NCBI GenBank assembly: GCA_963732355.1
Contig: CAVSZD010000007.1
Span: forward strand, 658,983 to 722,982
Direction: 5' to 3'
DNA length: 64,000 nt
Origin: an uncultured Actinomycetota bacterium
GTDB taxonomy: Bacteria; Actinomycetota; Actinomycetes; S36-B12; UBA10799
Shown here one piece after another: positions 5,474-63,620 of the stretch (positions are counted from its first letter, which is position 1; every line of letters starts with the position of its first letter). The translations under genes and the position numbers were made by a program. Below the pieces are notes generated by a model. The model saw only the letters and a program-made list of their open reading frames with translations. It had not been told where the DNA came from and made no database searches.

Positions 5474-5548
5474 GCCCCGTTAGCTCAGTGGTAGAGCACT
5501 CGCCTTGTAAGCGAAAGGTCGTCCGTTCAATCCGGACACGGGGCTCCA
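5474..5548 (+). tRNA. tRNA-Thr (anticodon UGU), CCA encoded
   Basis: Hand-folded cloverleaf. Acceptor stem GCCCCGT/ACGGGGC, D-arm GCTC-AGTGGTA-GAGC, anticodon loop CTTGTAA (TGT at 5506-5508), T-arm GTCCG-TTCAATC-CGGAC, discriminator T, CCA at 5546-5548. Confidence 0.95.
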
Positions 5549-6205: not shown

Positions 6206-6832
6206 ATGTCGACCCGTGTGATTCTCGAGATCTTCGGTTGGATCGGTTCCGGCCTGATCGTGTTGTCCCTGGCCCAGGCCCGCGTGTGGCGCTTCCGGAT
6301 CATGAACTTCATCGGCGCCGTGATCGCCACTGTCTACAACGGCATGCTGTCCATCTGGCCGTTCGCTGCCATGAACCTCGTCATCGCCGTCATCGACGCG
6401 TACTGGCTGGTGCGTCTGCGTAAGGAACGCCAGCCAGAATCGCAGGCCTACGACCTGCTGGAGGTGAACCACGAGGACGCGTACCTGCAGCACTTCCTCA
6501 AGGTTCACGGCGAGGACGCCAAAAAGCACTTCCCCGAATTCACTCCGCAGTCCCCGACCGTCTCCAACGTGATGATCATGCGCGGCGACGAGGCCGTCGG
6601 TGTTGTGAGCATCACTGAAATCACCGACGGCACAGCCAAACTGGGACTCGACTACGTCACGGAACGCTTCCGCGACTTCACCCCCGGCACGTTCGTCTAC
6701 CGGGACTCTGGGATGTTCGAAAGGCTGGGCGTGCGCCGTATCCAGGCACCGGCCACCTCGGGTCCGAAGTACCTACAACGGATGGGCTTCCAGGAACAAG
6801 ACGGCGCCTGGTTGCGTGACGTCGCCGCCTGA
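6206..6832 (+). CDS. membrane protein: N-terminal 3-TM module plus C-terminal soluble (possibly GNAT-like) domain
   Basis: The first ~75 aa form three hydrophobic helices (YgjV/SemiSWEET-like appearance). The C-terminal ~130 aa are soluble. Function not recognised. Confidence 0.6.
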   Translation: MSTRVILEIFGWIGSGLIVLSLAQARVWRFRIMNFIGAVIATVYNGMLSIWPFAAMNLVIAVIDAYWLVRLRKERQPESQAYDLLEVNHEDAYLQHFLKVHGEDAKKHFPEFTPQSPTVSNVMIMRGDEAVGVVSITEITDGTAKLGLDYVTERFRDFTPGTFVYRDSGMFERLGVRRIQAPATSGPKYLQRMGFQEQDGAWLRDVAA

Positions 6833-6871
6833 CCGGACTTCGCCACAGACATCCCAGTACCGTCACCGTCC

Positions 6872-11244: not shown

Positions 11245-11293
11245 GTGCCCCCCAGGGGTTTCGGTCGCGATAAGCGTGTCACAATTCCTTAGA

Positions 11294-11400
11294 CCTCATC
11301 CAGAGGGGCAGAGGGACCGGCCCGTTGAAGCCCCGGCAACCTACCGTTACACGGCGGAAATGGTGCCAAGTCCGGCCGCGCGAGCGGGAAGATGCGAAGG
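11294..11400 (+). promoter_or_regulatory. SAM-I (S-box) riboswitch aptamer
   Basis: CTCATCCAGAGGGGCAGAGGGACCGGCCCGTTGAAGCCCCGGCAACC...ATGGTGCCAAGTCCGGCCGCGCGAGCGGGAAGATG follows the S-box consensus (AGAGnGGnnGAGGGAnnGGCCCnnTGAAnCCnnGCAACC...GGTGCnAAnTCC...AGATGAG). P4 has a GCGA tetraloop. The P1 3' strand runs into the GAAGGA Shine-Dalgarno of the downstream gene. Confidence 0.85.
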
Positions 11401-11406
11401 ATTGCC

Positions 11407-12646
11407 ATGACGATCGATCTCGGAAGTGCAGTCGGACTCTCCTGTCGGGAGTGTTCTGCCAGCTACGAACTCGGCGCCGCCTACGCGTGCATCGAGTGCT
11501 TCGGTCCGCTCGAGGTGGCCTACGAGTTCCCCGCCCTCACCCGCGCCGACATCGAATCCGGTCCCGCATCGCTCTGGCGGTACAAGGACCTGCTGCCCGT
11601 GCGGCCTCAAGCCGCCACCGAGCCGAACCTCGCCCCAGGCTGGACCCGCCTGCACAAGGCCGACAACCTGGCCGCAGAGTTGGGGATGCGCAGCCTGTGG
11701 GTCAAGGACGACTCGGGAAATCCGACCCACTCGTTCAAGGACCGGGTCGTGGCTGTGGCTCAGTCGGCAGCGCGAGCCCTGGGGCTTACGACCCTTGGCG
11801 TGTGCCTCGACCGGCAACCTCGCCCACGCGGTTGCCGCAGCCGCTGCCCGCGGCGGCCAGAGCTCGGTCGTGGTCATCCCGCATGACCTCGAGGCCGGCA
11901 AGACGATAACAACAGCCACTTACGGCGGGGTGTTGCTGGCGGTCGAGGGCAACTACGACGACGTGAACCGTCTGTGCTCCGAGATCATCGGGGAGGACTT
12001 CTCCGCGAATTGGGGTTTTGTCAACGTCAACATCCGCCCGTACTACGCGGAGGGCTCGAAGTCGATGGGCTTCGAGATCGCCGAGCAACTGGGCTGGCGG
12101 ACCCCTGCGCAAGTTGTGGCACCGATCGCCTCCGGGTCCCTTTTGACCAAGGTTGACAAGTCCTGGCGCGAACTCGCTGCCCTTGGGCTCATCGAGCAGA
12201 CGCCTTACAGCGTGTTCGGTGCCCAGGCCACCGGCTGTTCCCCGGTCGCGCAGGCTTTCGATGCCGGGTGGGACGTCGTCAAACCCGTGAAACCCGCGAC
12301 CATCGCGAAGTCGCTGGCCATCGGCAACCCGGCCGACGGGCCCTACGCGCTCGATGTCGTTCGGCGCACGGGCGGCTCGATCACCTCGGTCAGCGATGAG
12401 GACGTGGTCGATGGGATCCGGATGTTGGCCCGGTCGGAGGGCATCTTCGCTGAAACCGCCGGCGGGGTGGTCGTGGCCTGCCTGCGGCAACTACTCAAGG
12501 AGGGCGCGCTCGACCCGGAAGCCGAAACCGTGATCCTCAACACCGGTGATGGGCTAAAGACCCTCGATGCTGTGATGGACTTCGCGAAACCGACTGCCAC
12601 CATCCGGGCGGATGTTGACGAGGTACGTGCTGCATTGCCTGAATAG
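11407..12646 (+). pseudogene. threonine synthase family PLP enzyme (ThrC/MetM-like), interrupted by a 1-nt frameshift
   Basis: N-terminal Zn-ribbon (CRECS...CIEC) and SFKDR lysine motif are in frame 1 up to ...ALGLTTL. ACASTGNLAHAV and the rest are in frame 2. The switch is at the CCC run at 11792-11794. Start set to ATG 11407, with GAAGGA 6 nt upstream. Confidence 0.85.
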
Positions 12647-31112: not shown

Positions 31113-33205
31113 CACCCTCCGCGCAGGTGTTTGCGGCGGATCATGTAAGCCTGGAAATCCTCCAGCCGACCATCGACCGCCTCGTTGTGAACCCATTCTC
31201 CGTCAGGACCAAGATCCCATGCCGACGTGCCATCGTCGAAGGCCTTATCCAGAATCTCCCCCACGTAGGCGATCTGTTCAGGTTCCTGTAACGACACCAG
31301 TGTCTCCACGCGTCGGTCGAGGTTGCGATGCATCAGATCCGCCGAGCCGATCCACACCTGGGGCTGCCCAGCATTGAGGAACTCGTACGCCCGTGAGTGC
31401 TCCAAGAATCGCCCGAGGATGCTGCGAACGCGCAGGTTCTCACTCATGCCGGGGACGTGCGGGCGGATGGCGCAGATTCCGCGCACCAGGACGTCGACCG
31501 GAACACCAGCGGCCGAGGCGCGATACAACGCGTCGATGACCTTCTCATCCACGATCGAGTTGCACTTGAACCGCACCCTCGCCGGCAATCCTTCCCGGTG
31601 ATTGGCGACCTCCTGCTCGATGCGTTCGAGCAGGCCCGAGCGGATCGAGTGGGGCGCGACCAGCAGCCGGTTGTACTCGGTATGCATCGAGTACCCGGAC
31701 AACTGGTTGAAGAGGTTGGCAACGTCCCGGCCGACCTGGTCGTCGACTGTGAGCAGCCCGAAGTCCTCATACAGCCGAGCGGTCTTCGGGTGGTAGTTGC
31801 CCGTCCCGAGGTGGCAGTAGCGGCGCAGGCGGTCGCCGTCGTCACGGACCACCATGGACAACTTGCAGTGGGTCTTCAGGCCCACCAGCCCGTAGACGAC
31901 ATGGACTCCGGCACGTTCCAGTTTGCGGGCCCACTTGATGTTGGCGCTCTCGTCGAAGCGGGCCTTGATCTCCACGAGGGCCAGCACCTGCTTGCCGGCC
32001 TCGGCGGCGTCGATGAGCGCATCGATGATCGGTGAGTCACCGCTGGTCCGGTACAAGGTCTGCTTGATGGCCAGGACCTTGGGGTCGGAGGCGGCCTGTT
32101 CCAGGAAGCGCTGAACGCTGGTGGAGAAGGAGTCGTACGGGTGGTGCAGCAGCACGTCGTGGCGTCGCATGGCCTCCAGTACGTTGGGGGCGCTTGCACT
32201 CTCCTTGTTCTCGGCCAGCAGGCGGTTGGTCTTGGGGACGAACACCGGGTCGGAGAGATCCTCCCGGTTCAGGCCGACGAAGGCCCACAGCCCGCGCAGG
32301 TCCAGCGGCCCTGGCAGCATGAAGACCTCGTTCTCGGCCATGCCCAGTTCCCGTACGAGGACGTCGAGGATGTGCGGCGCGATCGTCTGCTCCACCTCCA
32401 AGCGCACTGGCGGGCCGAAACGACGCTTGCTCAACTCCCGCTCCAGGGCCTTGAGCAGGTTCTCCGCGTCGTCCTCCTCGACCTCGAGGTCCTCGTTGCG
32501 CGTGACGCGGAACAGATGGTGCTCGATGATGTCCATGCCCGGGAACAACTGATCGAGGTGCTCGGCGATCACATCCTCGAGCGGGACGAAACGCGAGTCA
32601 CCGATCGTCAAGAAGCGGTCCAGCGACGGCGGAACCTTGACCCGCGCGAACAACTCAGTCCCCGTCGAAGGATTACCGACCACGACCGCGAGGTTCAGGG
32701 ACAACCCCGAGATGTAGGGGAACGGGTGGGCCGGGTCGACGGCAAGCGGAGTCAGGACCGGGTAGATCTTGTCCCGGAACAACCTCGACAATTGCTGGCG
32801 CTCGTCCTCGGACAACTCCGCCCAACGGACCAGGCTGATCCCCTCCGCCGCCAAAGCCGGTCGCACCTGATCCCCCCAGCAGGCGGCCTGGCGACGCATC
32901 AGGTCGTGCCCGTGCACCAAGACCGCGTCATGCACCTCCCGGGGAAGCAGCCCGCTGGCCGCCCGCAGAGCGATGCCGGCGGCGATCCGGCGCTTGAGGC
33001 CGGCAACGCGCACCATGAAGAATTCATCCAGGTTCGAGGCGAAGATCGCCAGGAATTTGGCCCGCTCGAGCAGGGGTAGTTCCTCATCCTCAGCCAGTTC
33101 CAGGACCCGCTGGTTGAAGGACAGCCAGCTCAGTTCCCGATCGATGAACCTGTGGTCGGGCAGATCGTCAACCACATCGGTGGCTTGCGAGGCGGCAGTG
33201 GTCAT
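31112..33205 (-). CDS. ppk1: polyphosphate kinase 1
   Basis: [22 protein letters not shown] at the N-terminus, HxK-type PLD motifs, 697 aa from ATG 33205. The 203-aa upstream ORF extension was rejected. Confidence 0.95.
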
Positions 33206-33243
33206 GACCCCAGCGTGCCAGAAAGGTCCGGATCGGTCGCGGC

Positions 33244-34134
33244 CTACGCCAGAGCGTATTGCACATCGCAATCTGCGCACTCGAAACCCAGCTGCTCGTA
33301 CATCCGGACTGCGGGGCTGTTGGCGGTGTCGACGTACAACATCACGGCCTCCAGACCCGAGTGGGCCAAGTAGCGCAGGCCGGCCGAAGTGAGCGCCCGC
33401 CCCAGGCCGGTGCCACGAGCCCGCGGGGCCACCCCGAGCACGTAGACCTCGCCGATCTGCCCGTGGGCGTGACCCGAGCCGCCGTGCACCTTCGTCCAGT
33501 GGAAACCCGCTAGTCCGTGGTCGTCGAACGCCAGAAGGAAACCCTCCGGATCGAACCAGGGCTGAGCCAATCGCTCCTGCAGATCGGTAAGCGTCCAGGA
33601 CCCCTGGTCCGGCAGGTCGACGAAGGCCTGGGCATTGAGTTCGAGCCACTGCGGGGCATCGGTGCTCGTGAAGGTCCTCAGCACGAATCCATCCGGCAAG
33701 CCGATCTCGGGGACGTCGCGCAGGGAACGGGTGTAGCGGCACAACCCCCGCACAGGCACGAAACCCGCGTGCTCGGCCAAAGCCCTTGCAGCCGGCAACT
33801 GCCCATGTGCCCACACCCGCACGCTGGGTCCTGCAACCGCAACAACCTGCTCGAGAATCCGTCTGCCGTGACCGGCGCCTCGTGCCGCAGGATCTACCAG
33901 GAATTCCGCCACGGGCGGTTGGCCGTCGGTGACACCGGCATACCCGATGATCTGGCCGGCGTCGTCGTGAAGCAGTCCCTGCCGCACACCGGGACCCCCA
34001 CCTGCCAGGACGTGCAGATACGTGTGTTCGCTCAATGACGACACACCGTCGGCATCGCTGACCCGGTCGAGCAGTGCATCGACATCCTTGATCTGCTCGG
34101 CGGACAGAGCCGCCGGCCAGTCCAGTGAACTCAC
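33244..34134 (-). CDS. mshD: mycothiol synthase (tandem GNAT)
   Basis: Two GNAT domains ([11 protein letters not shown] and [10 protein letters not shown] motifs). Position next to glnR matches mycobacteria. Confidence 0.85.
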
Positions 34135-34829
34135 GTGGTCAGCTCGGTGTCACGCTCGGCGTTGGGAGGTACCAAGCGGTACCCCACATTGCGCACCGTC
34201 CCGATCAGCGCCTCGTATTCCGAACCCAGTTTGGCCCGCAACCGCCGCACGTGGACGTCGACGGTCCGGGTGCCGCCGAAGTAGTCATACCCCCACACCT
34301 CTTGCAGAAGCTGCTGACGGGTGAATACCCGGCCCGGATGTTGCGAGAGGTACTTGAGCAGTTCGAACTCCTTGTAGGTCAGGTCGAGCACTCGCCCACG
34401 CACCGTGGCGGTGTAACTGGACTCATTGATCAGCAACTCGCCGTGCTGAATCTCGGGCGACCCACCCGGCAGCCCCTCGTCGAGCCGGCCCAGGGCCAAG
34501 CGGATGCGCGCCTCGACCTCACCGGGTCCAGCCGTCTCCAGCACGACGTCGTCCACACCCCAGTCGGCGGTGACGGCCGCCAGTCCGCCCTCGCCGAGGA
34601 TCAGCAGGACGGGCACGTCGGATCCTGTAGCCGCCAACACCCGGCAAAGGCTGCGAATGGCGGGCAGTTCACGCCGGCCGTCCACGAAGATCAGGTCCGC
34701 GGCCGGAGCATCGATCAGAGCCGCAGCTTCAGCGGGCAGCACCCTTACTTGATGGGCCAGTAGTCCGAGGGCGGGCAGCACGTGATCGCTCGGCTCGACC
34801 GCATCGGTCATCAGCAGAACACTGCTCAC
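34131..34829 (-). CDS. glnR: orphan OmpR-family nitrogen regulator GlnR
   Basis: Collinear by eye with Streptomyces GlnR as I remember it ([24 protein letters not shown]...L.D.P.AD...VDGRR.LP..RSLC, then [51 protein letters not shown]). The receiver lacks the conserved T/S and K. Confidence 0.85.
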
Positions 34830-45899: not shown

Positions 45900-46652
45900 T
45901 CAAGCGTTCTTCTCGAAGACCAACCGCAGCCCGATCAGCGTGAGATCGGGTTCGTACGCGGTGATGGTGCGCGACTCTGGCAGCACGACACTGGCCAGCC
46001 CGCCGGTGGCGATCACGGCCCCCATGGGCAGCTCCGCGTTGATGCGGTCCACGAGGCCATCGACCTGCCCGGCGAACCCGTACAAGGCCCCCGACTGCAG
46101 CGCCTCCACGGTGTTCTTGCCGATCACCGAGCGGGGGGCCACAAGTTCGACCTTGCGCAGGGCCGCCGCCCTCGAGGCCAGTGCGTCCAGGGAGATCTCG
46201 ATACCCGGGGCCAAAGCCCCGCCCAGGAACTCGCCCTTTGCCGATACGACGTCCAAGTTGGTGGACGTGCCGAAGTCGACAACCACACACGGTCCGCCGT
46301 AAAGGGTGTGCGCGGCCAGGGTATTGACAATGCGGTCCGCGCCGACCTCCTTGGGGTTGTCGGTCAAAATGGGAACCCCGGTGCGCGTCCCCGGTTCGAC
46401 GATCACGGTCGGCGTGTCCGGGTAGTACTCCCCGATCATCCAGCGGATCTCCCGTAGAACCGCCGGAACCGTCGAACACAAAGCGATCCCGTTGACCTCC
46501 GGCTGACCCCGCAACAACGCCCGGAAGAGGATGTAGATCTCGTCGGCGGTCGCTCTCGGGTCCGTCTTCACCCGGAACGAACGGCGCAACTGCTCACCGT
46601 GGAACAGACCCAGAACCGTGTTCGTATTACCGATGTCAATCGTCAGAAGCAT
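45900..46652 (-). CDS. coaX: type III pantothenate kinase
   Basis: MLLTIDIGNTNTVLGLF and VVDFGTSTNLDVV motifs (ASKHA fold). Confidence 0.9.
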   Translation of the reverse strand: MLLTIDIGNTNTVLGLFHGEQLRRSFRVKTDPRATADEIYILFRALLRGQPEVNGIALCSTVPAVLREIRWMIGEYYPDTPTVIVEPGTRTGVPILTDNPKEVGADRIVNTLAAHTLYGGPCVVVDFGTSTNLDVVSAKGEFLGGALAPGIEISLDALASRAAALRKVELVAPRSVIGKNTVEALQSGALYGFAGQVDGLVDRINAELPMGAVIATGGLASVVLPESRTITAYEPDLTLIGLRLVFEKNA

Positions 46653-47487
46653 CGCTGACCTCCTGCAGATCCGCGCCAATGTCCAGCACCTTGACCGAAT
46701 GGGTCAAGGCTCCGACAGCGACGTAGTCGACCCCCGTCGTGGCCACTTCCGCTGCGTTGTCCAGCGTGAGCCCGCCGGATGCCTCAAGCTGGGCGCGCCC
46801 CGCAGTGATCACGACCGCCTCATGCATCTGCTCGGGGGTGAAGTTGTCCAGCAGCACCAGGTCCGCCCCCGCGGCCAGCACCTCGCGCAACTGTTCCAGG
46901 GAGTCAACCTCGACCTCCACCGGCAGACCGGGGAACTCGCGGCGCACAGCCTCGAACGCCTGCCTCACTCCGCCGGCGGCCACGACGTGATTGTCCTTGA
47001 CCAAGGCGGCGTCCGACAGCGACATGCGGTGGTTCACGCCGCCACCGCAGCGCACGGCGTACTTCTGCAGGGCTCGCAAGCCCGGCAAGGTCTTGCGAGT
47101 GTCGCGCACCCGGGGTCCGTCCGGACCGAGTCGCTCGACCCAGGCGGCGGTGGCGGTGGCCACACCGGACAAGTGCGTGAGCAGGTTCAAGGCCGTGCGT
47201 TCGGCCGTCAGCAGGTCGCGGGTGCGCCCCACCGCGCTGAGTAGTACCTGTCCAGGCTCGATGTGATCCCCGTCAGCGGCAAGGATCTGCACGTCGACCG
47301 GCGCAACCGTTTCAAAGACCCGCCGCGCCACATCCAGCCCGCAGACCACACCCGCCTGTCTGGCCACGAAGTCCAACCGGGAGCGTTGGTGCTCGCTGAT
47401 GGTGGCAACGGAGGTGACATCGGGGCCGTCGGCGAGGTCCTCAGCCAGAGCCACAGCGATGAGATCGTCGATCCGGTCATCGTTCAC
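46636..47487 (-). CDS. nadC: nicotinate-nucleotide diphosphorylase (carboxylating)
   Basis: ALAEDL..GPDVTS, TRKTLPGLRALQKYAVRCGGGVNHR and LLDNF motifs. GTG 47487 overlaps the nadB stop (GTGA). Confidence 0.9.
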   Translation of the reverse strand: MNDDRIDDLIAVALAEDLADGPDVTSVATISEHQRSRLDFVARQAGVVCGLDVARRVFETVAPVDVQILAADGDHIEPGQVLLSAVGRTRDLLTAERTALNLLTHLSGVATATAAWVERLGPDGPRVRDTRKTLPGLRALQKYAVRCGGGVNHRMSLSDAALVKDNHVVAAGGVRQAFEAVRREFPGLPVEVEVDSLEQLREVLAAGADLVLLDNFTPEQMHEAVVITAGRAQLEASGGLTLDNAAEVATTGVDYVAVGALTHSVKVLDIGADLQEVSDASDD

Positions 47488-49076
47488 AAGGCCGCCTCCT
47501 TCGTCACCATCACTCCGTCCACCACCTGCGTCTGCAACCGCAACAACCACCGGTCATCAGCCAGCGGGAAGTCCTCACGCCAATGCGATCCGCGGGTTTC
47601 CTCGCGCGCAAGGGCCGCCTGGGCCAACGACCGGCCCACGAAGAGCAGGTTGGACATCTCCCAGGAACCGGTCGAAGGGGTCCCAGACCCGAACGTCGAC
47701 AGGTCCTCCATGGTCGCAGCCAATGACTCCGCACTGCGCAAGACGCCGGCGCCTTCGGTCATGGACCGCTGGAACCGGCGCCGAGCCGTCTCGTCGGCTG
47801 TCCATGGCCGGGTCTTGGGAACGGGATCTGCGCGCACGAGTTCCTGGCCGGCCAGGGCATCGGCGATCCTGTCGGCGAAGACCAGGCCTTCCAGCAGGGA
47901 GTTGCTGGCCAGCCGGTTCGCTCCGTGAACACCTGTGCAGGAGCACTCACCGCACGCGTAGAGCCCGGCCACCGTGGTCCTGCCCCACAGATCCGTGCGC
48001 AGCCCGCCGGAATGGTAGTGCTGGGCCGGAGCCACGGGAATGAGATCCATCGCGGGATCGATGCCCTGTTTCAGGCAGGACGCCAGGATCGTCGGGAAGC
48101 GGGTGGGCCAGTCGATCTTGCGGCCGTCCAGCCAGACATGGTCGCTACCGGTGGCCCTCATCTGCCGCATGATCGCCTTTGCAACCACATCGCGCGGAGC
48201 GAGTTCCTCAAGCGGATGGACTCCCACCATGAAGCGCTTGCCCTGGCCGTCCAGCAGTACCGCTCCCTCCCCGCGCACGGCCTCCGAGACCAAGGGCTGC
48301 TGGCCTGCCGCCTGTGGGCCGAGGTAGAGCACGGTGGGATGGAACTGCACAAATTCCATGTCTGCCACGACCGCTCCTGCCCGCAGACCCAGACCGATGC
48401 CGTCGCCGGTGGCCACCGGTGGGTTCGTCGAGGCGGTGAACACTTGGCCGATGCCGCCTGTGGCGAGCACTACGGCCGGGGCCAGAATCGCCCCAACACC
48501 GTCTCGCTGGCCCTCGCCCATGACGTGCAGAGTCACCCCCTGGGCCGATCCGCGGGCATCCAACAAAAGGTCGAGCACCAGGGCGTGCTCGATGACCTCG
48601 ATCCGCTGGCCCACTTCGCCGACCAGTGCGCGCAGAATCTCCGAACCGGTGGCGTCCCCACCGGCGTGGGCGATGCGGTCGGTCAGGTGTCCGCCCTCCC
48701 GGGTCAGGGCGATGTCCCCGTCGGGCGTCCGGTCGAACTCCGCGCCCCACTTGATCAGCCGCCGCACTGCGGCCGGACCGGATTCGACAAGCACCCGTAC
48801 CGCCGCCTCGTCGCAGAGGCCAGCACCGGCGACCAGTGTGTCCTGCAGGTGCGCCTCGGGGGTATCACCAGGAGCCAATGCCGCAGCGATCCCGCCCTGC
48901 GCCCACCGCGTGGACCCTTCATCGACCTGCGCCTTGGTGACCACGACCACCTTGAGACCGGCCCGGCGCGCGCGGATGGCCGTTGTGAGACCAGCGATCC
49001 CCGAGCCGACCACGACCACGTCGGCCTCGATGAACCAGCCAGGTGCGGCCGCGCTGAGGGAATCCGGCAAGACCAC
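47484..49076 (-). CDS. nadB: L-aspartate oxidase
   Basis: VVVVGSGIAGL FAD motif, STRWAQGGIAAAL, HLTDRIAHAGGDATG, and the C-terminal RGSHWRED. Start GTG 49076, 2 nt after the panC stop. Confidence 0.9.
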   Translation of the reverse strand: MVLPDSLSAAAPGWFIEADVVVVGSGIAGLTTAIRARRAGLKVVVVTKAQVDEGSTRWAQGGIAAALAPGDTPEAHLQDTLVAGAGLCDEAAVRVLVESGPAAVRRLIKWGAEFDRTPDGDIALTREGGHLTDRIAHAGGDATGSEILRALVGEVGQRIEVIEHALVLDLLLDARGSAQGVTLHVMGEGQRDGVGAILAPAVVLATGGIGQVFTASTNPPVATGDGIGLGLRAGAVVADMEFVQFHPTVLYLGPQAAGQQPLVSEAVRGEGAVLLDGQGKRFMVGVHPLEELAPRDVVAKAIMRQMRATGSDHVWLDGRKIDWPTRFPTILASCLKQGIDPAMDLIPVAPAQHYHSGGLRTDLWGRTTVAGLYACGECSCTGVHGANRLASNSLLEGLVFADRIADALAGQELVRADPVPKTRPWTADETARRRFQRSMTEGAGVLRSAESLAATMEDLSTFGSGTPSTGSWEMSNLLFVGRSLAQAALAREETRGSHWREDFPLADDRWLLRLQTQVVDGVMVTKEAAL

Positions 49077-49078
49077 CG

Positions 49079-49882
49079 CTACCTCACCTCCACTGCACAG
49101 TTGTCCAGCAGTCTGGTGGATCCCACACGCGCGGCGATCAGTAGACGGCACGGACCTGGTGTGGGAGCCGAAAGATCGGTACCCCGGACCACCGCGTAAT
49201 CGATATCGAGTCCCGCGAGCTCAGCGGTCGCCGCCGCTTCGATCGCAGCGACATCGGTGTGCAGTCTGCCCGCGCGCAGGGCGCTCGGGATCGCCGCTGC
49301 CAACTGACGCTGTTCGCCCGACAGGTACACGTTCCGGCTGGATCGGGCCAACCCGTCGGGTTCCCGGGAGGTGGGTACACCCACGACGTTCACCGGCGCG
49401 TCCAGGTCCTTGACCATCGAGCGGATCAGCGTCAACTGCTGGTAGTCCTTCTCCCCGAAGTAGGCATCGTGAGCGGCAGTCAGGTTGAGAAGTTTCATCA
49501 CAACAGTGAGTACCCCCCGGAAGTGGCCGGGACGGGCTGCACCCTCCAGGTCGGACCCAAGGGGACCCGGATCGACGCTCACCACAGCGTCGGGGCCGTA
49601 GATCTGATCGGAGGCGGGGGTGAAGACCGTGTCCACGCCGAGCGCCTCGCACAGCCCGAGATCGGCATCCAGGGACCGCGGATACTTGTCGAGATCCTCG
49701 TTCGCACCGAACTGCATGGGATTGACGAAGATGGTCACTGTCACGTGATCGTCGGTTTGCCGCGCAGCTCGGATGAGGCTCGCGTGACCTTCATGCAGGG
49801 CCCCCATGGTCATGACGACCCCGCGGCGCTTCCCGGTCGAGTGGTCGGCGAGGATCTCTGCGCGGGTCGTGAGGCGTCTCAT
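49079..49882 (-). CDS. panC: pantoate-beta-alanine ligase
   Basis: TMGALHEGHASLIR (HIGH-type motif), NPMQFGANEDL, GEKDYQQL. Confidence 0.92.
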   Translation of the reverse strand: MRRLTTRAEILADHSTGKRRGVVMTMGALHEGHASLIRAARQTDDHVTVTIFVNPMQFGANEDLDKYPRSLDADLGLCEALGVDTVFTPASDQIYGPDAVVSVDPGPLGSDLEGAARPGHFRGVLTVVMKLLNLTAAHDAYFGEKDYQQLTLIRSMVKDLDAPVNVVGVPTSREPDGLARSSRNVYLSGEQRQLAAAIPSALRAGRLHTDVAAIEAAATAELAGLDIDYAVVRGTDLSAPTPGPCRLLIAARVGSTRLLDNCAVEVR

Positions 49883-50736
49883 GGCTGGCCACCCAACGCA
49901 TTGAGCAAACCCTCGGCAGCGACGGGCCGCAGCAGACCCTCTGCCAGCGCCCGGTCGGCGGTCAGACGCGCCAGGGCCACGTAGGCAGCCAACAACTGCG
50001 GGTCCGTGCTCAGCACCTGCACGTGGGCCGCGACGGTCTGGGCGTCCCCGCGCACGACCGGACCGGTCAAAGCGTGGTAGCCCATCCGCAAGGCGTTGTC
50101 CAAGCTCGCCTGCAGCAAGGGCGTGAGCAGACGAGCGGGGGATTCGACGCCCGCAGCGGCGAGGATCTCCGTGCCGGAGGCGACCAGCGTGATGAGGTGG
50201 TTCGCGGAGTGTGTCAACGCAGCGTGGTACAGCGGGCGCGCATCCTCGGGGATCCAGACCGGCTCGCCACCCATCTCAACCACCAGTGCCTCAGCAGCCA
50301 TCCGCAAAGCCTCCGGCGACGTCACTGCGAAAGGCGTGCCCGACAGGCGCTCCACATCCAGGCTGGTGCCCGTCAGCGTCATCGCAGGATGCAGCGCCAA
50401 AGGCAGGGCGCCGCGGCGGGCGGCGGGGTCGAGCACACCGTGGCCGTAGCGGCCCGAGCAGTGCACCACGAACTGACCGGGCGTGAACTCAAGAGCCTGC
50501 GCCAGCGCCGGCAACGCGTCGTCGGGCACCGCAAGCAGCACAAGATCACAACGGGCGACGACCTCCTCGACGCTGACCAGTTCGGTTGCCGGAAGCATGC
50601 TCGCCGCGCGCTCGCGCGAAGCATCGCTGACGGCATGGGCGGCTACAACGGGATGGCCCGCTCGGGCGAGGGCACCACCCAGGGCACCACCGGCACGGCC
50701 CACCCCGATCACGCCGGCACGAAGGCGAACACTCAC
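49879..50736 (-). CDS. Rossmann-like and DUF2520 domain-containing protein (putative ketopantoate-reductase-like)
   Basis: N-terminal GVIGVGRAGGALGGAL dinucleotide fold and a C-terminal DUF2520-like helical domain. Coupled by a 4-nt overlap to panC. Confidence 0.8.
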   Translation of the reverse strand: MSVRLRAGVIGVGRAGGALGGALARAGHPVVAAHAVSDASRERAASMLPATELVSVEEVVARCDLVLLAVPDDALPALAQALEFTPGQFVVHCSGRYGHGVLDPAARRGALPLALHPAMTLTGTSLDVERLSGTPFAVTSPEALRMAAEALVVEMGGEPVWIPEDARPLYHAALTHSANHLITLVASGTEILAAAGVESPARLLTPLLQASLDNALRMGYHALTGPVVRGDAQTVAAHVQVLSTDPQLLAAYVALARLTADRALAEGLLRPVAAEGLLNALGGQP

Positions 50737-51596
50737 GCTGGCGAGCCTACCGAGGAACGTTCGGTGAACAACCAGCCGAAGGACCCCAGACCGCAGCGAT
50801 CACGTAGAACCCGTAGTTGCGCGGCCTGCGTTGCCGATTCCGGCACGCAGTGCTCAAGGACCCGGTGTTGAGGAACCAACCGTCCCCCAGTGCGCGCCCG
50901 GCATGCCCGCAGATCCACACCGGCGCACAGATCCACCCCCGCCGACACCCCGGGGGGCATTCGCCGTCCTCGTCGGTGCCCGACCGGGGTCCCGCCCATG
51001 AAGTCCACGGCTATCGCCTCACCGGCGCTGACTTTGCCCACCAACGCGGCCCACACCTCGTCGCGACGCAGCCCCAGCACCCCCGGCTGGCCACTGCTCC
51101 AGGTCTGTAGCCACCGCATTTCAGCAGGTGTGACGGATCGCGCCTGCCGGCCGGAGGTTGTCAGGACGTACCCCCGGTCCACAACGTCCACGGGGATGTC
51201 GTCGAGGAATTCATGGGCCAGCAGCAGCCCCCGCACGGTTGGGACGCAGTCCGGCGCGATTCCTTGGATCCACGTCACGGGAAGATCCGGTGGCGCTGCC
51301 CGCACGTCCACTCCAAGAAGCCGATCGGGCGGGAATCCGAGGCCGATCAGCTGCCCAAGCAGGCGCCCGTCACCCGCCCCGACGTCCACGATCCATGGGT
51401 CTTGGATGCCGTGGCGAATAGCCGCCGCATGGCAGCGATCCAGGATCACGCGGGCGACATGGTCGCCTACCCCGATGGACGTGACGAAGTGGTCCTGGGC
51501 TTGCTCGTTGCACGAGAACCCTCGCTCATCCCGATGCGTCCAGTCCATGGCCTCGGACCACGTCATCTGGTCGGTGAACTTCAGTTCTGCATCCAC
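50733..51596 (-). CDS. SAM-dependent methyltransferase-like protein (MidA/NDUFAF7, DUF185-like)
   Basis: VDVGAGDGRLLGQL motif I, LLLAHEFLDDIPVDVV, DLCAGVDL and the C-terminal LGSFGWL resemble MidA-family proteins. Confidence 0.7.
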   Translation of the reverse strand: MDAELKFTDQMTWSEAMDWTHRDERGFSCNEQAQDHFVTSIGVGDHVARVILDRCHAAAIRHGIQDPWIVDVGAGDGRLLGQLIGLGFPPDRLLGVDVRAAPPDLPVTWIQGIAPDCVPTVRGLLLAHEFLDDIPVDVVDRGYVLTTSGRQARSVTPAEMRWLQTWSSGQPGVLGLRRDEVWAALVGKVSAGEAIAVDFMGGTPVGHRRGRRMPPGVSAGVDLCAGVDLRACRARTGGRLVPQHRVLEHCVPESATQAAQLRVLRDRCGLGSFGWLFTERSSVGSPA

Positions 51597-57704: not shown

Positions 57705-58640
57705 ATGGGTTGGAACATCGAGGACATTCCCGACATCACCGGACGCACCTACCTGATCACGGGCGCCACGTCCGGGCTGGGTTTCGAGTCGGCCAAGGCG
57801 CTGGCTGAGGCAGGCGGCGACGTCATCCTGGCCGGACGCTCGACCGAGCGCCTGGCGCAGGCGCAACGCAGCATCAACCGCGAGACCCAGAGTCTGCTCG
57901 TTGATCTTGCCGACCTCGACAGCGTGCGCAAGGCCGCCGACAACCTTCCGGTCGAACACCTCGACGTACTGATGAACAACGCCGGCATCATGGCCCCGCC
58001 TCTGGGCCGGACCGAGGACGGCTTCGAGACCCAGATCGGCACCAACCACCTGGGCCACTTCGCCCTCACTGCGCTGCTGCTGCCGAGGATGGACCCGGGC
58101 AGCGACTTGTCACGGGTCGTGACTGTCTCCAGCGGTGCTCACCGCATGGGACGCATGGACCTGGACGACCTCAACTACGAACACCGCAAATACTCGGCCT
58201 GGTCGGCGTACGGGCAGAGCAAACTGGCCAACCTGCTGTTCATGGCTGAGCTGGACCGGCGCAGCAGGGCAGCCGACTGGCATCTTCGCAGCGTGGCCGC
58301 CCATCCAGGTTTCGCGGCCACGAACCTACAGTTCTCGGGGCCCAAGATCGCGCACAACCCGGTCGGCAGGCAAGTCACGAAGCTGATGAATGCCGTGGCC
58401 GGACAATCGGCGCAATCCGGTGCCCGACCGCAGCTGTACGCCGCAACGATGGACGACGTGCGGGGCGGGGAGTACTTCGGTCCCTCCGGACCGTTCGAGT
58501 CCCGCGGAGCACCGAGCCGGGTGGGGCGTTCCTCGCAGGCCCAGGACGCCCGGATGGCGGCTATGCTCTGGGACCTCTCCGAGGAGCTGACTGGCGTGCG
58601 CTACGACTTCACAGACCGGCCGAACTCCTCAACGTCATAG
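57705..58640 (+). CDS. SDR family oxidoreductase (retinol-dehydrogenase-like)
   Basis: ITGATSGLG, NNAGIM and YGQSK catalytic motifs. Confidence 0.85.
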   Translation: MGWNIEDIPDITGRTYLITGATSGLGFESAKALAEAGGDVILAGRSTERLAQAQRSINRETQSLLVDLADLDSVRKAADNLPVEHLDVLMNNAGIMAPPLGRTEDGFETQIGTNHLGHFALTALLLPRMDPGSDLSRVVTVSSGAHRMGRMDLDDLNYEHRKYSAWSAYGQSKLANLLFMAELDRRSRAADWHLRSVAAHPGFAATNLQFSGPKIAHNPVGRQVTKLMNAVAGQSAQSGARPQLYAATMDDVRGGEYFGPSGPFESRGAPSRVGRSSQAQDARMAAMLWDLSEELTGVRYDFTDRPNSSTS

Positions 58641-59146
58641 ACCCACAACTGCGCGGGCCAGGATCGCGGTGCCAGCCCAGCCTTGCGCCACAACCCCGCG
58701 ACGAAGAGCTCGGCAGTGGGCAACTGTTCCCACACCGCAGGCAGGAAAGTACCGCGGCGCCCGGACGCGGCCACCACCGCACCGCAGCGCGGCAGCCTGT
58801 CTACGACATCGCGGTAAGAGTCGGCAGGGAACTCCCGCAACTCACCCAGTACTGAGATCTCCACGTCAACGCCTCGCAGGTCCGCAACCGGGTTGAAGCG
58901 TGGGTCGTCGAACGCGGCGGCCAAGGCGTGTTCGGCGATGTCCCGACCAAGCGACTGGTAGGCCTCGAGCGCCCCGATACATCCCAGCAACTGCCCGTCC
59001 CGGCGCAATGTGACGAAGGAGCAGCCCGGGACCGACAGGAAGTCGGGCAGAACCTGCGGCATCCGGCGGTGACCTGTGGCCAGAGCCTCCTGAATCGTCG
59101 CGATGGCCAGGTCGAGCATCTGCTCGCGTTGCTGCGCGGTGTGCAT
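58601..59146 (-). CDS. amrA: AmmeMemoRadiSam system protein A (AMMECR1 domain)
   Basis: GCSFVTLRRDGQLLGCIGAL (LRGCIG-type motif) and DPRFNPV. ATG 59146 overlaps the upstream stop. Confidence 0.85.
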   Translation of the reverse strand: MHTAQQREQMLDLAIATIQEALATGHRRMPQVLPDFLSVPGCSFVTLRRDGQLLGCIGALEAYQSLGRDIAEHALAAAFDDPRFNPVADLRGVDVEISVLGELREFPADSYRDVVDRLPRCGAVVAASGRRGTFLPAVWEQLPTAELFVAGLWRKAGLAPRSWPAQLWVYDVEEFGRSVKS

Positions 59147-59910
59147 CACACCCCCACCGTGAAGGCGCCGTAACCCACCACCCGGTCGCGCGGCCCGGCG
59201 GTGTCCCCCGAGTTGCGCAGATCCAGCAGGCGCACATCCAAGTCGAGCCGGTCTGCTGCCATCAGCATGCCTCGCAGCGGGTAGGCGCCGCATGCGTCGT
59301 CGTCCTGTATCGCTGCCCATTCACGCCCGACGATCCGCGACGCCGTGGCACAGTCCTTCTCCAGCGCCGCGTGGTACGGCAGATAGTGCGACAGGTCCGT
59401 GGACAGGACCACCACGGTCGTTGGATCGGCCAGAAATCCTTGGAGGACGTCAGCAACCTCATACGGGTCAGCACGTCCCACCAACAGTGGCAGCAGCGTC
59501 CAGCCCGGCTCCAATTGGCGCTGCAGGAAAGGCAGTTGAACCTCGAGGCTGTGCTCGGGCGCATGGGGATAGTCGTCCACGGCAACCGGAAGATCGGCTA
59601 TCGCTGCGGTGTCGATCGGCACGTCCCCCAGAGGTGTGCGCCAGACCTGCGCGGCGGGCGCGACGATGCCGGGCACAGCAACGAAGTGCGCTGGCCCGGC
59701 GAGCACGACCCGCTGGGTCTGCGCGCAGGAGCGGTAGGCGTGAGCGGCGACCGGACCCGAGAAGATGTGCCCGGCATGCGGCACGATGATCCCCTGCGGC
59801 TGAGCCGATCCCTGCGGTGCGCCAGCCAGGTAACCGTCGACCTCTTCGGCGAGGTCGATCGGGTCCAAGGTGTAGAAGCGCCCGGCGACGGCTGGTTCTC
59901 TGATCCTCAT
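59146..59910 (-). CDS. amrB: AmmeMemoRadiSam system protein B (MEMO1 family)
   Basis: REPAVAGRFY, IIVPHAGHIFSGPVAAHAY and STDLSHY motifs. The start overlaps the ligase stop (ATGA). Confidence 0.88.
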   Translation of the reverse strand: MRIREPAVAGRFYTLDPIDLAEEVDGYLAGAPQGSAQPQGIIVPHAGHIFSGPVAAHAYRSCAQTQRVVLAGPAHFVAVPGIVAPAAQVWRTPLGDVPIDTAAIADLPVAVDDYPHAPEHSLEVQLPFLQRQLEPGWTLLPLLVGRADPYEVADVLQGFLADPTTVVVLSTDLSHYLPYHAALEKDCATASRIVGREWAAIQDDDACGAYPLRGMLMAADRLDLDVRLLDLRNSGDTAGPRDRVVGYGAFTVGV

Positions 59911-61236
59911 ATCCCACCCCCTGCTAGAAGTAACCTTTCGACCTTGCCCGATGCGTTGTGCGGGATGGCGTCGAGACGCTCAATCTGCTTCGGGCGCTTG
60001 TAGGCCGCCAGCCGCCCGTCAGCCCAGCGGCCGATTTCGTCGGGGGTCGCCTGGCCGGTGTACGCGGCGCACACACGTTGCCCCCAACGTTGGTCATCGC
60101 GACCGAACACCGCGATCTCCGTCACACCTGGACACTGCGAAAGAACCGCCTCGACTTCAGCCGGGTACACATTCACGCCCCCGCTGATGATCAGATCCTC
60201 ACGCCTGCCCTCCAGGTACAGGTACCCGTCCGCAATCCGGCCGAGGTCCCCGACACTGAACGCATCGTCATCCCAGGCGGCATCGGTCTTGATTGGGTCG
60301 TTCCAGTAGGAGAACCGGGCGAACTCGGGGGTATGACACCAGATGATGCCGTCGCGGATCTCAAGATGACGACCCTGACGCGCCCGGCCCACGGTCCCTG
60401 GCCGCTGCTCCCAGTCCGAGCCTGGGCACACCGTGAACTGGCCCTCCGTGGAGCCGTAGAACTCCCACACATGCTCAACTCCGGCCCACTCGTGCGCTTG
60501 GCGTTTGAGCGCCGGTGGGCAGGCTGCCCCGGCGTGGGTGATCAACCGGTAGGGGCTACTCGGCAGTTCCAGTTCGAACAGGCGCTGGAGGTGGCTGGGC
60601 ACCAGGAACGCATGGGTCGGCCGGTGTTCTGCCAGCGCCGAAGCAACAACGGGCGCGTCGAATCCCCCGGGCAGGATGGCCTTGCCGCCGGCCTGCAACA
60701 CCAACATCGCGTAGCGCAGAGGCGCAGCATGGCACAGCGGTCCGTGAACCAGGGTGACATCTGCGGCAGTGAACTCCCACTGGTCCAACTCGTCGCGCCA
60801 CAGGGCTTCGGTGCGAGAGATCGCCGATGCCTTGCGTGTACACACCCTTCGGTCTTCCAGTGGTGCCGGACGTGTAATGCATGGGCCGTCCGAGGGGCCA
60901 CGCCGACAACTCCGGGGCGTGGCCACGCCATTCGCACAACCCCACCATCTGGGATGCGTCCTCGATCACGACCGCCGCGCCGCTGTCAGCGACGATGTGC
61001 TCGCGTTCCGCTGGCGTCAGCATTGGGTTGATCGGCACGGGGACCAGTCCGGTGCGAAGCGCCGCCGCCACGATGGCGATGGTCCGGGCCTGCAGAGCAG
61101 CTGCCTGCTGGCGCGGATAACGATGCTCAGGGGTCACCACAGCGACGCGATCGCCGGGCCGCAGACCCATTTCCCCCAAACCCCCGGCAGCGGACTGTGT
61201 CATCCGCTGGTATCGGCTGGCTTCCAGGACGAACAT
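59907..61236 (-). pseudogene. AMP-dependent synthetase/ligase (acyl-CoA-synthetase-like), interrupted by a 1-nt frameshift
   Basis: The N-terminal frame (61236 down) runs to the HYTSGTTGRPKGV AMP motif. A second frame carries ...EALWRDEL...HGPLCHAAPL...EFYGSTEG...GDLG..DGYLYLEGRREDLIISGGVNVYP...AYKRPK. The switch lies within about 60800-60850. Confidence 0.8.
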
Positions 61237-61245
61237 GACGCCAGG

Positions 61246-62349
61246 CTAGCCACGCATCCGGATGGGCAGTCGCCTGCGGCCCCAGGAACCCGCAGTGGGG
61301 GCAAAGACCCCCGGTAGCTGCGTGCCGCAGTGGGTGCAGGCGCCGGACGCGTCGAGGTCGTAGGCCAACAACTCGTACCAGTCACGCACGATGAGTGGAC
61401 GCGCACACGTCGGGCAGAACGTGGTGTCGCCGGCTGAGTCGTGGACGTTTCCCGTGTAGGCGAAGTGCACGCCTTCTGCCATCGCGATCTGCCTTGCACG
61501 GGCCAGCGCCGTGGGTGGGGTCCGGGGGACATCCAGCATCTTCCAGTCGGGGTGGAAAGCGCTGAAGTGCATCGGGACGTCCGGACCGAGGTGTTCGACC
61601 ACCCACCCGGACATACGCGTCAGTTCGTCGTCTGAGTCGTTGTGGTCCGGCACCACCAGGGTGGTCAGCTCCACCCACACGTCGGATTCCTTGACCGCCC
61701 ACTCGATCGTCTCGAGGACCGCCTGCAGATGTCCGCCGCAGACCTTGCGGTAGTAGTCCTCAGTGAAACCCTTGAGGTCGATGTTGACGGCGTCCATGGC
61801 CCCGAGCAACTCCGTCCGCGGGCCGGGCTCGATGTAGCCCGCCGTGACTGCGACGGTCTTGATACCGGCGTCCCGGCAGGCGTGGGCGGTGTCCACGGCG
61901 TACTCGAGGAAGACCACCGGATCGTTGTACGTGAACGCGACGCTGGTGCAGCCGTACCGAAGCGCAGCGTCTGCAATCGCCTGCGGGGATGCGCTGTCAG
62001 CCAGCGTGTCTATGTCGCGCGACTTCGAGATGTCCCAGTTCTGGCAGAACTTGCACGTGAGGTTGCAGCCAGCCGTCCCGAATGACAGGACAGGGGTTCC
62101 CGGCAGAAAGTGGTTCAGCGGCTTCTTCTCGATCGGGTCGATGCAGTACCCACTGGACCGGCCGTACGTGGTGGAGACGATCTGGTCGTTCTCGCGGGCA
62201 CGGACGAAACACAGTCCCCGCTGCCCCTCGTGCAGCCGGCACGCCCTCGGGCAGACATCGCACTGCACCCGCCCATCGTCGAGGAGGTGCCAGTACTTCG
62301 TCTCTGACACCTGACCCAACGACGCGCTCGTGCGCAACTGCGCCCCCAC
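61246..62349 (-). CDS. amrS: AmmeMemoRadiSam system radical SAM enzyme
   Basis: N-terminal Cys cluster (CDVCPRAC...C), PIEKKPLNHF, and the radical SAM CNLTCKFCQN (CxxxCxxC) motif. PFL-activase-like length. Confidence 0.88.
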   Translation of the reverse strand: MGAQLRTSASLGQVSETKYWHLLDDGRVQCDVCPRACRLHEGQRGLCFVRARENDQIVSTTYGRSSGYCIDPIEKKPLNHFLPGTPVLSFGTAGCNLTCKFCQNWDISKSRDIDTLADSASPQAIADAALRYGCTSVAFTYNDPVVFLEYAVDTAHACRDAGIKTVAVTAGYIEPGPRTELLGAMDAVNIDLKGFTEDYYRKVCGGHLQAVLETIEWAVKESDVWVELTTLVVPDHNDSDDELTRMSGWVVEHLGPDVPMHFSAFHPDWKMLDVPRTPPTALARARQIAMAEGVHFAYTGNVHDSAGDTTFCPTCARPLIVRDWYELLAYDLDASGACTHCGTQLPGVFAPTAGSWGRRRLPIRMRG

Positions 62350-62380: not shown

Positions 62381-62758
62381 TCAAGGCTGGGCTGGCTGCA
62401 CCTGCAAGTGATACGCGTAGTGGCTGTCCATGGCCAGCAGGAAGCCGCCCTGGGCCACAACGGCCGCTCCGTCCCCGCGGTAGCGCTGCTTGCGCAGCAG
62501 CCACGCACCGACACTGATGTAGCCCACATCGGCCAAGGTGTTGATCATCAGGATCTTGCGAAGGCGGGCAGGATCCGGGTCCGGTCTGCTGCGCCCGTAC
62601 ATCACGATCGCGGCGTTCACGACACCCCACGCCAGCGTCTGACGCCCGAAGGAGCGGGCGATCTGCGAATGCCCGGCGGCCCAGAGGCCACCTCCGGCGA
62701 CGATCGACGACGCCGACCAGAGGGTGAAGGTCCGCATGAGGTCCTTGGAGGTGGCCAT
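62381..62758 (-). CDS. small integral membrane protein
   Basis: 125 aa with about four hydrophobic helices. The start directly abuts the stop of the upstream Cys-rich gene. Confidence 0.6.
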   Translation of the reverse strand: MATSKDLMRTFTLWSASSIVAGGGLWAAGHSQIARSFGRQTLAWGVVNAAIVMYGRSRPDPDPARLRKILMINTLADVGYISVGAWLLRKQRYRGDGAAVVAQGGFLLAMDSHYAYHLQVQPAQP

Positions 62759-62980
62759 TCACCCCTCCACGTACGGACAATGCCGGCAACCGTTGTGGCA
62801 GCACGATCCGCGTTCGAGGTGATACGCCGCGGTCAGCACGAACAGGCCCGAGTCGGGATCGATGTAGCCGGGCTGCTGGGCGTCGACGGCCGCTGCGTGC
62901 AGATCCATTATCTGCTGACGTCGCGGGTGTTCGAGCGCAAGCCGGTCGGGATGCGGTGCCATCGGGTCAGAACGTGCCAC
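62759..62980 (-). CDS. small Cys-rich protein (DUF5522-like, C-terminal CCHNGCRHCPY)
   Basis: 73 aa. GLFVLTAAYHLERGSCCHNGCRHCPY motif. Confidence 0.65.
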   Translation of the reverse strand: MARSDPMAPHPDRLALEHPRRQQIMDLHAAAVDAQQPGYIDPDSGLFVLTAAYHLERGSCCHNGCRHCPYVEG

Positions 62981-62987
62981 CTTGCCA

Positions 62988-63620
62988 TTATTCGGGTGGT
63001 CCGACCATGTCCGCCAATGCGCCCATCAGCGGACGCATCCTCTCGAAGTTGGTGCGCACCGTCGACTGCAGTCGTCTGGTCCCCATCCAGGCCTGCGGTT
63101 CCCAGGTCCGGGTGACGTGCAGGGTTCGATGTCGAAGCAGGTCAAGGTCCGGATTGTCCTCGTCAACCCCGCGTGGCTTGGTCTTCAGTTGCTCACCGCC
63201 GACTTCGAACCCAGCCTTCGGCAGCGGCTTGAGCGTCGCCCGAAGATCAACGGCTCCCGACTCGAGGATGTGCCCCCGGAACCGTTTGACCTGCGCCGGG
63301 GTCGATCGGTACCAGCCACCGGCCACCATGAGCCCAGTTGCGCTGACTTGTAGGTACCAGCCGAGGCCGTTCTCGGCGGCGAACACACAGCCCTGGTGAT
63401 CCTTGATCGGGGCAGCGTCACGGCTGAACCGCATGTCCCGATAGGGCCGGTAGAGATGCGCCGGCCCGAACTCGGGTGCGAGATCTTCGGCGAGTTCACT
63501 GAGGGGCTCCCGGACGAACTGCTCGTACTGCGCCTTGTGTTCGGCCCAGAACTCCCTGGTGTTCTCAGCCTCGAGCCGCTCGTAGAACTCGAAGGCTTCG
63601 GCCGGTATTCCGTTGGTCAT
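62988..63620 (-). CDS. DUF2461 domain-containing protein
   Basis: FEFYERLEAENTREFWAEHKAQYEQFVREPL and YRPYRDMRFSRD...K follow the DUF2461/TIGR02453 pattern. Confidence 0.8.
   Translation of the reverse strand: MTNGIPAEAFEFYERLEAENTREFWAEHKAQYEQFVREPLSELAEDLAPEFGPAHLYRPYRDMRFSRDAAPIKDHQGCVFAAENGLGWYLQVSATGLMVAGGWYRSTPAQVKRFRGHILESGAVDLRATLKPLPKAGFEVGGEQLKTKPRGVDEDNPDLDLLRHRTLHVTRTWEPQAWMGTRRLQSTVRTNFERMRPLMGALADMVGPPE

Follow-up and report, generated by a model that had tools for sequence, protein, structure and literature searches.

An adenylate-forming ligase gene inside the AmmeMemoRadiSam operon of an uncultured actinobacterial lineage: a probable lineage-specific operon variant

Introduction

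AmmeMemoRadiSam is a bacterial three-gene system made up of a radical SAM enzyme (AmrS), a Memo-like protein (AmrB) and an AMMECR1-like protein (AmrA). Within a 64,000-nt stretch of DNA from an uncultured Actinomycetota bacterium (the window, to whose numbering the coordinates below refer), the three genes form an operon that also holds a gene for an adenylate-forming ligase of the ANL superfamily, placed between amrS and amrB. The reading we favour, to which we assign a probability of about 0.6, takes the ligase for an accessory or hitch-hiker peculiar to this clade, co-expressed with the trio and unchanged in its biochemistry, and the locus for a lineage-specific operon variant. Under this reading, a short (~442 aa) acyl-CoA-synthetase-like gene would have come to lie between amrS and amrB in the ancestor of the clade, keeping the biochemical job of relatives that stand alone between uvrB and coaE and forming no core or general part of the trio reaction, while in the window strain the one extra base that breaks its reading frame would be due either to a very recent inactivation or to systematic sequencing error.

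The operon in the window

Genes of the window were assigned from a listing of open reading frames (ORFs) combined with profile searches against Pfam and NCBIfam; L and P numbers denote loci and proteins of the comparison set. The four genes of the operon all lie on the minus strand:

61246-62349, minus strand: amrS, AmmeMemoRadiSam radical SAM enzyme, 367 aa, GTG start (TIGR04337, PF04055)
59907-61236, minus strand: ANL-superfamily (AMP-binding) ligase, 1330 nt (PF00501 and PF13193)
59146-59910, minus strand: amrB, Memo-like protein B, 254 aa (TIGR04336, PF01875)
58601-59149, minus strand: amrA, AMMECR1-like protein A (TIGR04335, PF01871), appearing as 58601-59320 in the ORF listing

The assignment of the trio is strong by profile score, with the amrS product reaching 623.3 bits on TIGR04337 (curated cutoff 220), the amrB product 225.1 bits on TIGR04336 (cutoff 26) and 148 bits on PF01875, and the amrA product 138.4 bits on TIGR04335 (cutoff 99) and 106 bits on PF01871. 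AmrS carries the CX3CX2C motif at residue 95 as CNLTCKFC, together with further cysteine pairs at residues 30, 312 and 338, and in AmrA residue 55 marks the conserved cysteine motif GCIG. All three proteins thus score above the cutoffs of the AmmeMemoRadiSam models and are encoded on one strand within 3.75 kb, as in the known system, from which the window and its clade differ by the ANL ligase gene that splits the cassette between amrS and amrB.

The junctions are tight throughout. Nine nucleotides separate the TAG of amrS from the ATG of the ligase gene, and the ligase TGA overlaps the amrB ATG as ATGA. At the last junction amrB and amrA meet as TGATG, a 1-nt overlap, if amrA starts at ATG 59146 (181 aa), or as GTGA if GTG 59149 is the start (182 aa). 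The four genes, their order and their close spacing had been described in the first-pass annotation made from the letters of the window, and both ORFs and family scores bear this out; its account of the spacings holds for the first two junctions and fails for the third, which it had given as a second ATGA. We infer that the four genes are co-transcribed, with translational coupling probable. Co-expression of the ligase with the trio is well supported, a degree of support that does not extend to membership of the same pathway. A consensus scan of the window for promoters and terminators gave no match, such a scan being uninformative for a high-GC actinobacterium.

Conservation of the layout within the clade

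Upstream and downstream of the four genes lie further genes that recur in related genomes:

62988-63620, minus strand: DUF2461 protein, first gene of the same-strand run, 25-nt gap to the DUF5522 gene
62759-62962, minus strand: DUF5522 small Cys-rich protein, 0-nt gap to the DUF6992 gene
62381-62758, minus strand: DUF6992 small protein, 31 nt upstream of amrS
57705-58640, plus strand: short-chain dehydrogenase (SDR), convergent with amrA, 3' overlap of 40 nt (58601-58640)

The same-strand run in the window therefore reads DUF2461-DUF5522-DUF6992-amrS-ligase-amrB-amrA, with upstream gaps of 25, 0 and 31 nt. Sampling of neighbourhoods at graded ligase distances, covering 64-88% ligase identity, finds this four-gene order in ten different genomes. 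All belong to a single lineage of uncultured Actinomycetota, which NCBI records label either Candidatus Nanopelagicales or Actinomycetota. Besides the window strain, the loci with the embedded layout are:

L001: ligase identity 88%
L005 (GCA_041393775.1, a Ca. Nanopelagicales metagenome-assembled genome, MAG): 78%
L162: 76%
L007/L008: 74%
L012 (Actinomycetota MAG HK-STAS-ACTI-17, JACJWU01): 74%
L163: 73%
L164: 73%
L009: 68%
L010/L011: 64%

All sampled embedded loci show the arrangement DUF2461-(DUF5522)-DUF6992-amrS-ligase-amrB-amrA with a convergent SDR gene, and together with the window and the near-identical locus L002 they represent every major branch of the ligase clade, which has 44 members in a neighbour-joining (NJ) tree. 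The ligase is intact, at 442-448 aa, in nine genomes, the window/L002 strain being the exception. Over seven representative loci the amrS-ligase spacing ranges from 9 to 153 nt and is 9-10 nt in five of them; the ligase/amrB overlap is present in all seven, and amrB and amrA overlap or adjoin in every case. The DUF6992 gene stands upstream of amrS in every embedded locus that reaches that far, and the SDR gene beside amrA in every one that extends past amrA, while the latter is absent from outgroup trio loci; only in this clade are the two constant neighbours of the trio.

The ligase is under purifying selection in the clade, with pairwise dN/dS of 0.10-0.16 at dS 0.6-1.8 (0.107 between the frame-corrected window gene and L001), a range equal to that of amrS, amrB, amrA and the flanking genes. 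One outcome envisaged by the first-pass annotation, that the ligase might prove a degraded passenger missing from this position in relatives, does not hold, the gene being intact, selected and in the same position in every related clade genome examined. Because the whole ~10-kb block is syntenic in the embedded genomes, however, the conservation of gene order is partly phylogenetic inertia and does not count as independent evidence either way.

Three further observations were made on these loci. The convergent 3' overlap between amrA and the SDR gene measures 37-52 nt in most clade genomes (L001, L005, L009, L010 and L162-L164 as well as the window). In L012 (9101-9264) amrS and the ligase gene stand 153 nt apart rather than 9 nt, with the junction motif GGCTAGCCTGG..CATG kept before the ligase start, which suggests that the C-terminus of AmrS is altered or prematurely terminated there. 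A 90%-identity ligase cluster counts two AmrB proteins among its members, for example HRY09828.1, whose accession comes just before that of the ligase HRY09829.1; their inclusion is probably an artefact of clustering, yet it incidentally confirms that ligase and amrB adjoin in a further MAG.

Trio loci outside the clade

The distribution of the linkage was followed from AmrS in one genome per GTDB species, with the best 80 loci (62-82% AmrS identity; Actinomycetota, Proteobacteria, Acidobacteriota, Gemmatimonadota, Nitrospirota, Planctomycetota and others) annotated by tblastn. A ligase between amrS and amrB occurs in one of the 80, L012, which is the closest locus and belongs to the same clade, whereas none of the 79 others has an ANL gene within or adjoining the trio; weak ANL matches in L059 and L088 do not adjoin the trio and lie on the other strand. 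Among the closest actinobacterial outgroups the trio runs uninterrupted as amrS-amrB-amrA (L027 from Ca. Nanopelagicales, L031 from Acidimicrobiia, and L046, L059 and L084 from Actinomycetes), most proteobacterial loci have the divergent arrangement amrA<-amrB and amrS->, and in about 20 of the 80 loci amrS is alone within 8 kb. In the reverse direction, trio genes were found near none of 69 JGI metagenome loci of the ligase family. Since the linkage is confined to one of 80 amrS loci, from the same clade, and to none of these 69, these surveys show no general ligase-containing sub-type of the system, and on these gene neighbourhoods the layout is restricted to one clade, the linkage having arisen once. 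That a ligase is no part of the canonical trio, as the first-pass annotation had it, agrees with this survey.

The ligase and its family

When the reading frame is corrected as described below, the ligase is a protein of 442 aa with the motifs expected of the ANL superfamily: A3 (TSGTTGRPKG), A5 (YGSTEG), A7 (GDLG), A8 (GRREDL) and the A10 lysine (SGK), the A8 region holding an SGGVNVYP segment typical of coenzyme A (CoA) ligases. Both pieces into which the gene falls in the window match PF00501 above the gathering threshold, and the C-terminal piece also matches PF13193. Searches with the reconstructed protein return many full-length homologues of 440-448 aa, and a 117-sequence alignment of the family contains ~96 near-invariant positions. 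The intact embedded orthologue P0001 reaches no curated cutoff in NCBIfam, whose named acyl-CoA ligase families include FadD types, MenE, malonyl-CoA synthase and benzoate-CoA ligase, its best scores being 238.7 bits on PRK12406 (cutoff 701) and 174.7 bits on menE (cutoff 330), and the sub-threshold profile is identical for the embedded, trio-less and uvrB-type ligases. NCBIfam holds no model for an AmmeMemoRadiSam-associated ligase, and NCBI records name these ligase proteins only 'AMP-binding protein'.

Among solved structures the closest are Mycobacterium tuberculosis FadD13 (3R44) and FadD5 (8R2Q), the malonyl-CoA synthetase MatB (4FUT) and MenE (5X8F), with E values from ~1e-44 to 1e-32. 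These share with the ligase the PF00501 and PF13193 domains, motifs A3, A5, A7 and A8 and the A10 lysine; the best PDB match (2e-44), however, covers residues 120-437 only, which marks the characterised acyl-CoA synthetases as distant kin, and the N-terminal region of the ligase is ~60 residues shorter than theirs. The ligase is a member of an uncurated, highly conserved short ANL family, and it most likely adenylates a carboxylate and then transfers it to CoA.

Outside the operon, relatives of the ligase occur as a single gene between uvrB and coaE: P0049 (L003, 62% identity), P0109 (L004, 55%) and the ligase of L093 (51%). In this setting uvrB is divergent and coaE convergent, with rpsA and polA nearby. 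P0049 and P0109 fall on far-apart branches of the NJ tree, and the uvrB-coaE setting is for that reason taken as ancestral for the family. These orthologues, of ~441-455 aa and thus of equal length, have ~96 near-invariant positions in common with the embedded ligase, from which they differ in being monocistronic and having no AmmeMemoRadiSam gene within 8 kb. For seven near-sister ligases the longest contig is of the same size as that of CoaE matches, while among the best 120 CoaE homologues none lies on the embedded-clade contigs of 1,423,677, 1,245,159, 461,408 and 324,616 bp. At fourteen positions the embedded clade shows a fixed difference from its near sisters. As these substitutions are mostly conservative, and as eight are also found in the trio-less locus L092, there is no sign that the ligase was re-tooled on entering the operon, and it looks separable from the trio.

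A cluster of CoA and NAD cofactor genes is also present in the window itself, 9-13 kb from the operon (45903-50799, minus strand: coaX for a type III pantothenate kinase, nadC, panC and a DUF2520 Rossmann protein). Ligase relatives elsewhere adjoin coaE, and the proximity may be a coincidence.

A ligase locus that lacks the trio

One positional orthologue of the ligase, P0104 at L092 from ERZ25039597, occurs in the same chromosomal block as in the window, but none of amrS, amrB and amrA is traceable there (tblastn E>0.5); DUF6992 and SDR genes were likewise undetected at this locus. The order at L092 is LtrA-DUF2461-orf-orf-DUF5522-ligase, the ligase starting ~10 nt after the DUF5522 gene, followed by PKcyc2<-, hydrolase<-, amine oxidase<-, MFS-> and rhomboid<-. 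P0104 joins the embedded clade in 85% of the NJ bootstraps and has eight of the 14 residues fixed in that clade; about one third of the replicates fail to recover the embedded clade by itself as monophyletic, in agreement with a nested position of P0104. Two histories are possible, namely that the trio and its two satellites were deleted around the ligase or that the ligase was resident before the trio came, and by either of them the ligase can be retained in this position with no trio in cis.

The L092 ligase is itself disturbed. Two compensating indels at GATC-like sites (~6750-6850) misframe ~35 codons including the A5 motif, and most of its violations of invariant sites fall in this one stretch, which could be an assembly error or decay after the loss of a partner. 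In a relative-rate test the L092 ligase is mildly long-branched (0.61 against 0.56 ± 0.02), and a metagenome scan with the L092-type ligase found no close relative, the best match being at 51%.

The frame break at position 60825

The ligase of the window strain is interrupted by a single feature:

60825, minus strand: frameshift caused by a single surplus G (ATCG[G]CGATC), following directly on the A3 P-loop motif and with a GATC 3 nt away

The first-pass annotation had cautioned that the ligase gene is frameshifted, and the caution proves justified. The ligase region of 1330 nt is 1 modulo 3, and alignment to the intact L001 orthologue places the extra base (ATCGGCG in the window against ATC-GCA) as the sole length difference. 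In place of the continuous ORF found at the nine orthologous loci, the window has two overlapping pieces, 60556-61236 (226 aa) and 59907-60926 (339 aa), the upstream frame continuing past the extra G through 89 out-of-frame codons until it meets a stop at 60556. Deletion of G 60825 restores a clean ORF of 442 codons that keeps all 97 family-invariant residues. Whichever origin the break has, there is no long-term decay of the ligase.

Evidence on that origin points in two directions. The same extra G is present in L002 (ENA sample ERZ25039462), which matches the window at 99.72% identity across 10 kb and has two private indels, an extra C at the equivalent of window position 60120 in the ligase and another in the LysE gene. 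As the 26 single-nucleotide differences between the two are distributed as 15 synonymous, 10 non-synonymous and one intergenic, they represent distinct strains and not one assembly deposited twice. The trio genes are all intact in the window strain, and the ligase break stands out in the window because the five other suspicious same-strand ORF pairs all proved to be distinct genes. This was established by Pfam tests of the ORF pairs, frame tracking by GC content at third codon positions (~0.85) being too noisy for a frameshift scan.

Long-read error is the other candidate. Basecalling errors in nanopore assemblies gather at methylated motifs. The indel shared by the window and L002, one of the two private to L002 and both in the A5 region of L092 coincide with a GATC or are no more than 3 nt away from one, against ~9% of positions in the region that lie equally near a GATC, a post-hoc comparison of small numbers in which the second L092 indel is itself inferred. 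GATC is in 2.7-fold excess in the window (543 occurrences against ~202 expected from base composition), and the contigs carry names in the style of Flye. The GATC-adjacent indels suggest that basecalling of long reads errs systematically at a methylated motif. Between a recent real mutation and a systematic artefact the odds are roughly even, and single-base breaks beside GATC in long-read-style metagenome contigs should not be called pseudogenes without read-level support.

Two functional explanations of the break were considered and set aside. A programmed +1 frameshift was rejected, as the extra base occurs in no orthologue and the 0-frame stays open for 89 codons, with no nearby stop or slippery logic. 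A functional split ligase is unlikely, given that the break falls inside the N-domain just after the A3 P-loop and that translation of the C-terminal piece from its first in-frame start, GTG 60926, would add 35 out-of-frame residues.

Other features of the window

Elsewhere in the window, a tRNA gene lies at 5474-5545 on the plus strand (RF00005, 66 bits), and an S-adenosylmethionine (SAM) riboswitch at 11293-11398, also on the plus strand, scores 79.5 bits on RF00162 against a gathering score of 44.4, with a plus-strand ORF at ~11329-11883 directly downstream. The polyphosphate kinase gene ppk1 (31115-34149, minus strand) has all four domains present; the ORF of a GNAT acetyltransferase overlaps the region upstream of it in another frame, the two being separate genes with no frameshift.

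Discussion

Some of the observations above sit uneasily with a ligase that merely travels with the trio. The tight coupling of the genes outlasts the divergence of amrA to 55% identity and the gain and loss of flanking genes, a persistence that exceeds what one might expect from inertia alone. The DUF6992 and SDR genes co-vary with the trio plus ligase and are both missing in L092, which hints at a larger lineage-specific module of trio, ligase, DUF6992 and SDR. The garbled A5 motif of L092, if real, could reflect decay of the ligase after loss of the trio, and hence a functional coupling between them.

The chief alternative is a four-enzyme pathway in which the ligase makes an acyl-AMP or acyl-CoA for the radical SAM, Memo-like and AMMECR1-like proteins, the activated substrate being supplied in other organisms by the same ligase from an unlinked locus or by another enzyme. 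In its favour are the 9-10-nt gap and the stop/start overlaps, kept in ten genomes whose ligases range down to 64% identity, the purifying selection on the ligase, the constant company of SDR and DUF6992 genes that are missing where the trio is missing, and the disrupted A5 motif of the sole trio-less positional orthologue. These are outweighed, in our judgement, by the lack of an ANL gene in or beside the trio at all 79 amrS loci outside the clade, by the stand-alone occurrence of the ligase family elsewhere, by the small number and mostly conservative nature of the clade-fixed substitutions, over half of which recur in L092, and by a window strain whose ligase frame is broken while its trio is intact. 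A pathway of this kind had been proposed in the first-pass annotation, which took the ligase to activate a carboxylate substrate before or after the radical SAM step, a proposal drawn solely from operon membership and weakened by the survey of other amrS loci, by a family that otherwise stands alone beside uvrB and coaE and is near-invariant in any context, and by the retention of a positional orthologue in the same block without the trio at L092. That the ligase, perhaps together with SDR and DUF6992, is a true pathway partner of the trio in this clade thus seems to us a minority prospect, to be held tentatively. Were it so, the trio would act on a carboxylic acid in the form of an acyl-CoA or acyl-adenylate, for example a lipid-like or small organic acid, or on a compound derived from it, and the operon would offer the first direct biochemical handle on the MEMO1 and AMMECR1 families, which are conserved up to humans.

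A neutral passenger, landed by chance with no selected role and now at the start of its loss, is improbable: the break common to two real variant strains 99.72% identical, the second ligase indel in L002 and the absence of split genes among the five other ORF pairs of the window, so that frameshifts are not widespread there, would fit it, but the ligase is intact in nine other genomes with dN/dS ~0.1 over dS 0.6-1.8, the window copy keeps all 97 invariant residues once the G is removed, and the proximity to GATC of the indels in L002, L092 and the window (background ~9%) is typical of systematic basecalling error in long reads and not of mutation.

What the AMMECR1, Memo and radical SAM trio does is a long-standing question, and homologues of both AMMECR1 and MEMO1 exist in humans. 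The Memo domain has reportedly been tied to nucleotide-base and isoprenoid modification, in an account not known to mention an acyl-CoA ligase. An RNA base modification was predicted from the linkage of AMMECR1, radical SAM and dioxygenase genes (Balaji & Aravind 2007, PMC2034487). No description of a ligase-containing sub-type was found in NCBIfam or in the literature searched, which did not include Burroughs et al. 2019 (J Biol Chem), and no experimental paper on the bacterial trio was found in the same literature. An adenylate-forming enzyme coupled to the trio is a cheap and testable lead on the function of these proteins. As a lead on the mechanism it is weak, because the linkage arose once, the ligase family is normally found alone and the ligase survives without the trio. 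With the ligase read as a co-expressed accessory or hitch-hiker of unchanged biochemistry, the case is more telling about the remodelling of an operon within one lineage than about how the AmmeMemoRadiSam system works in general.

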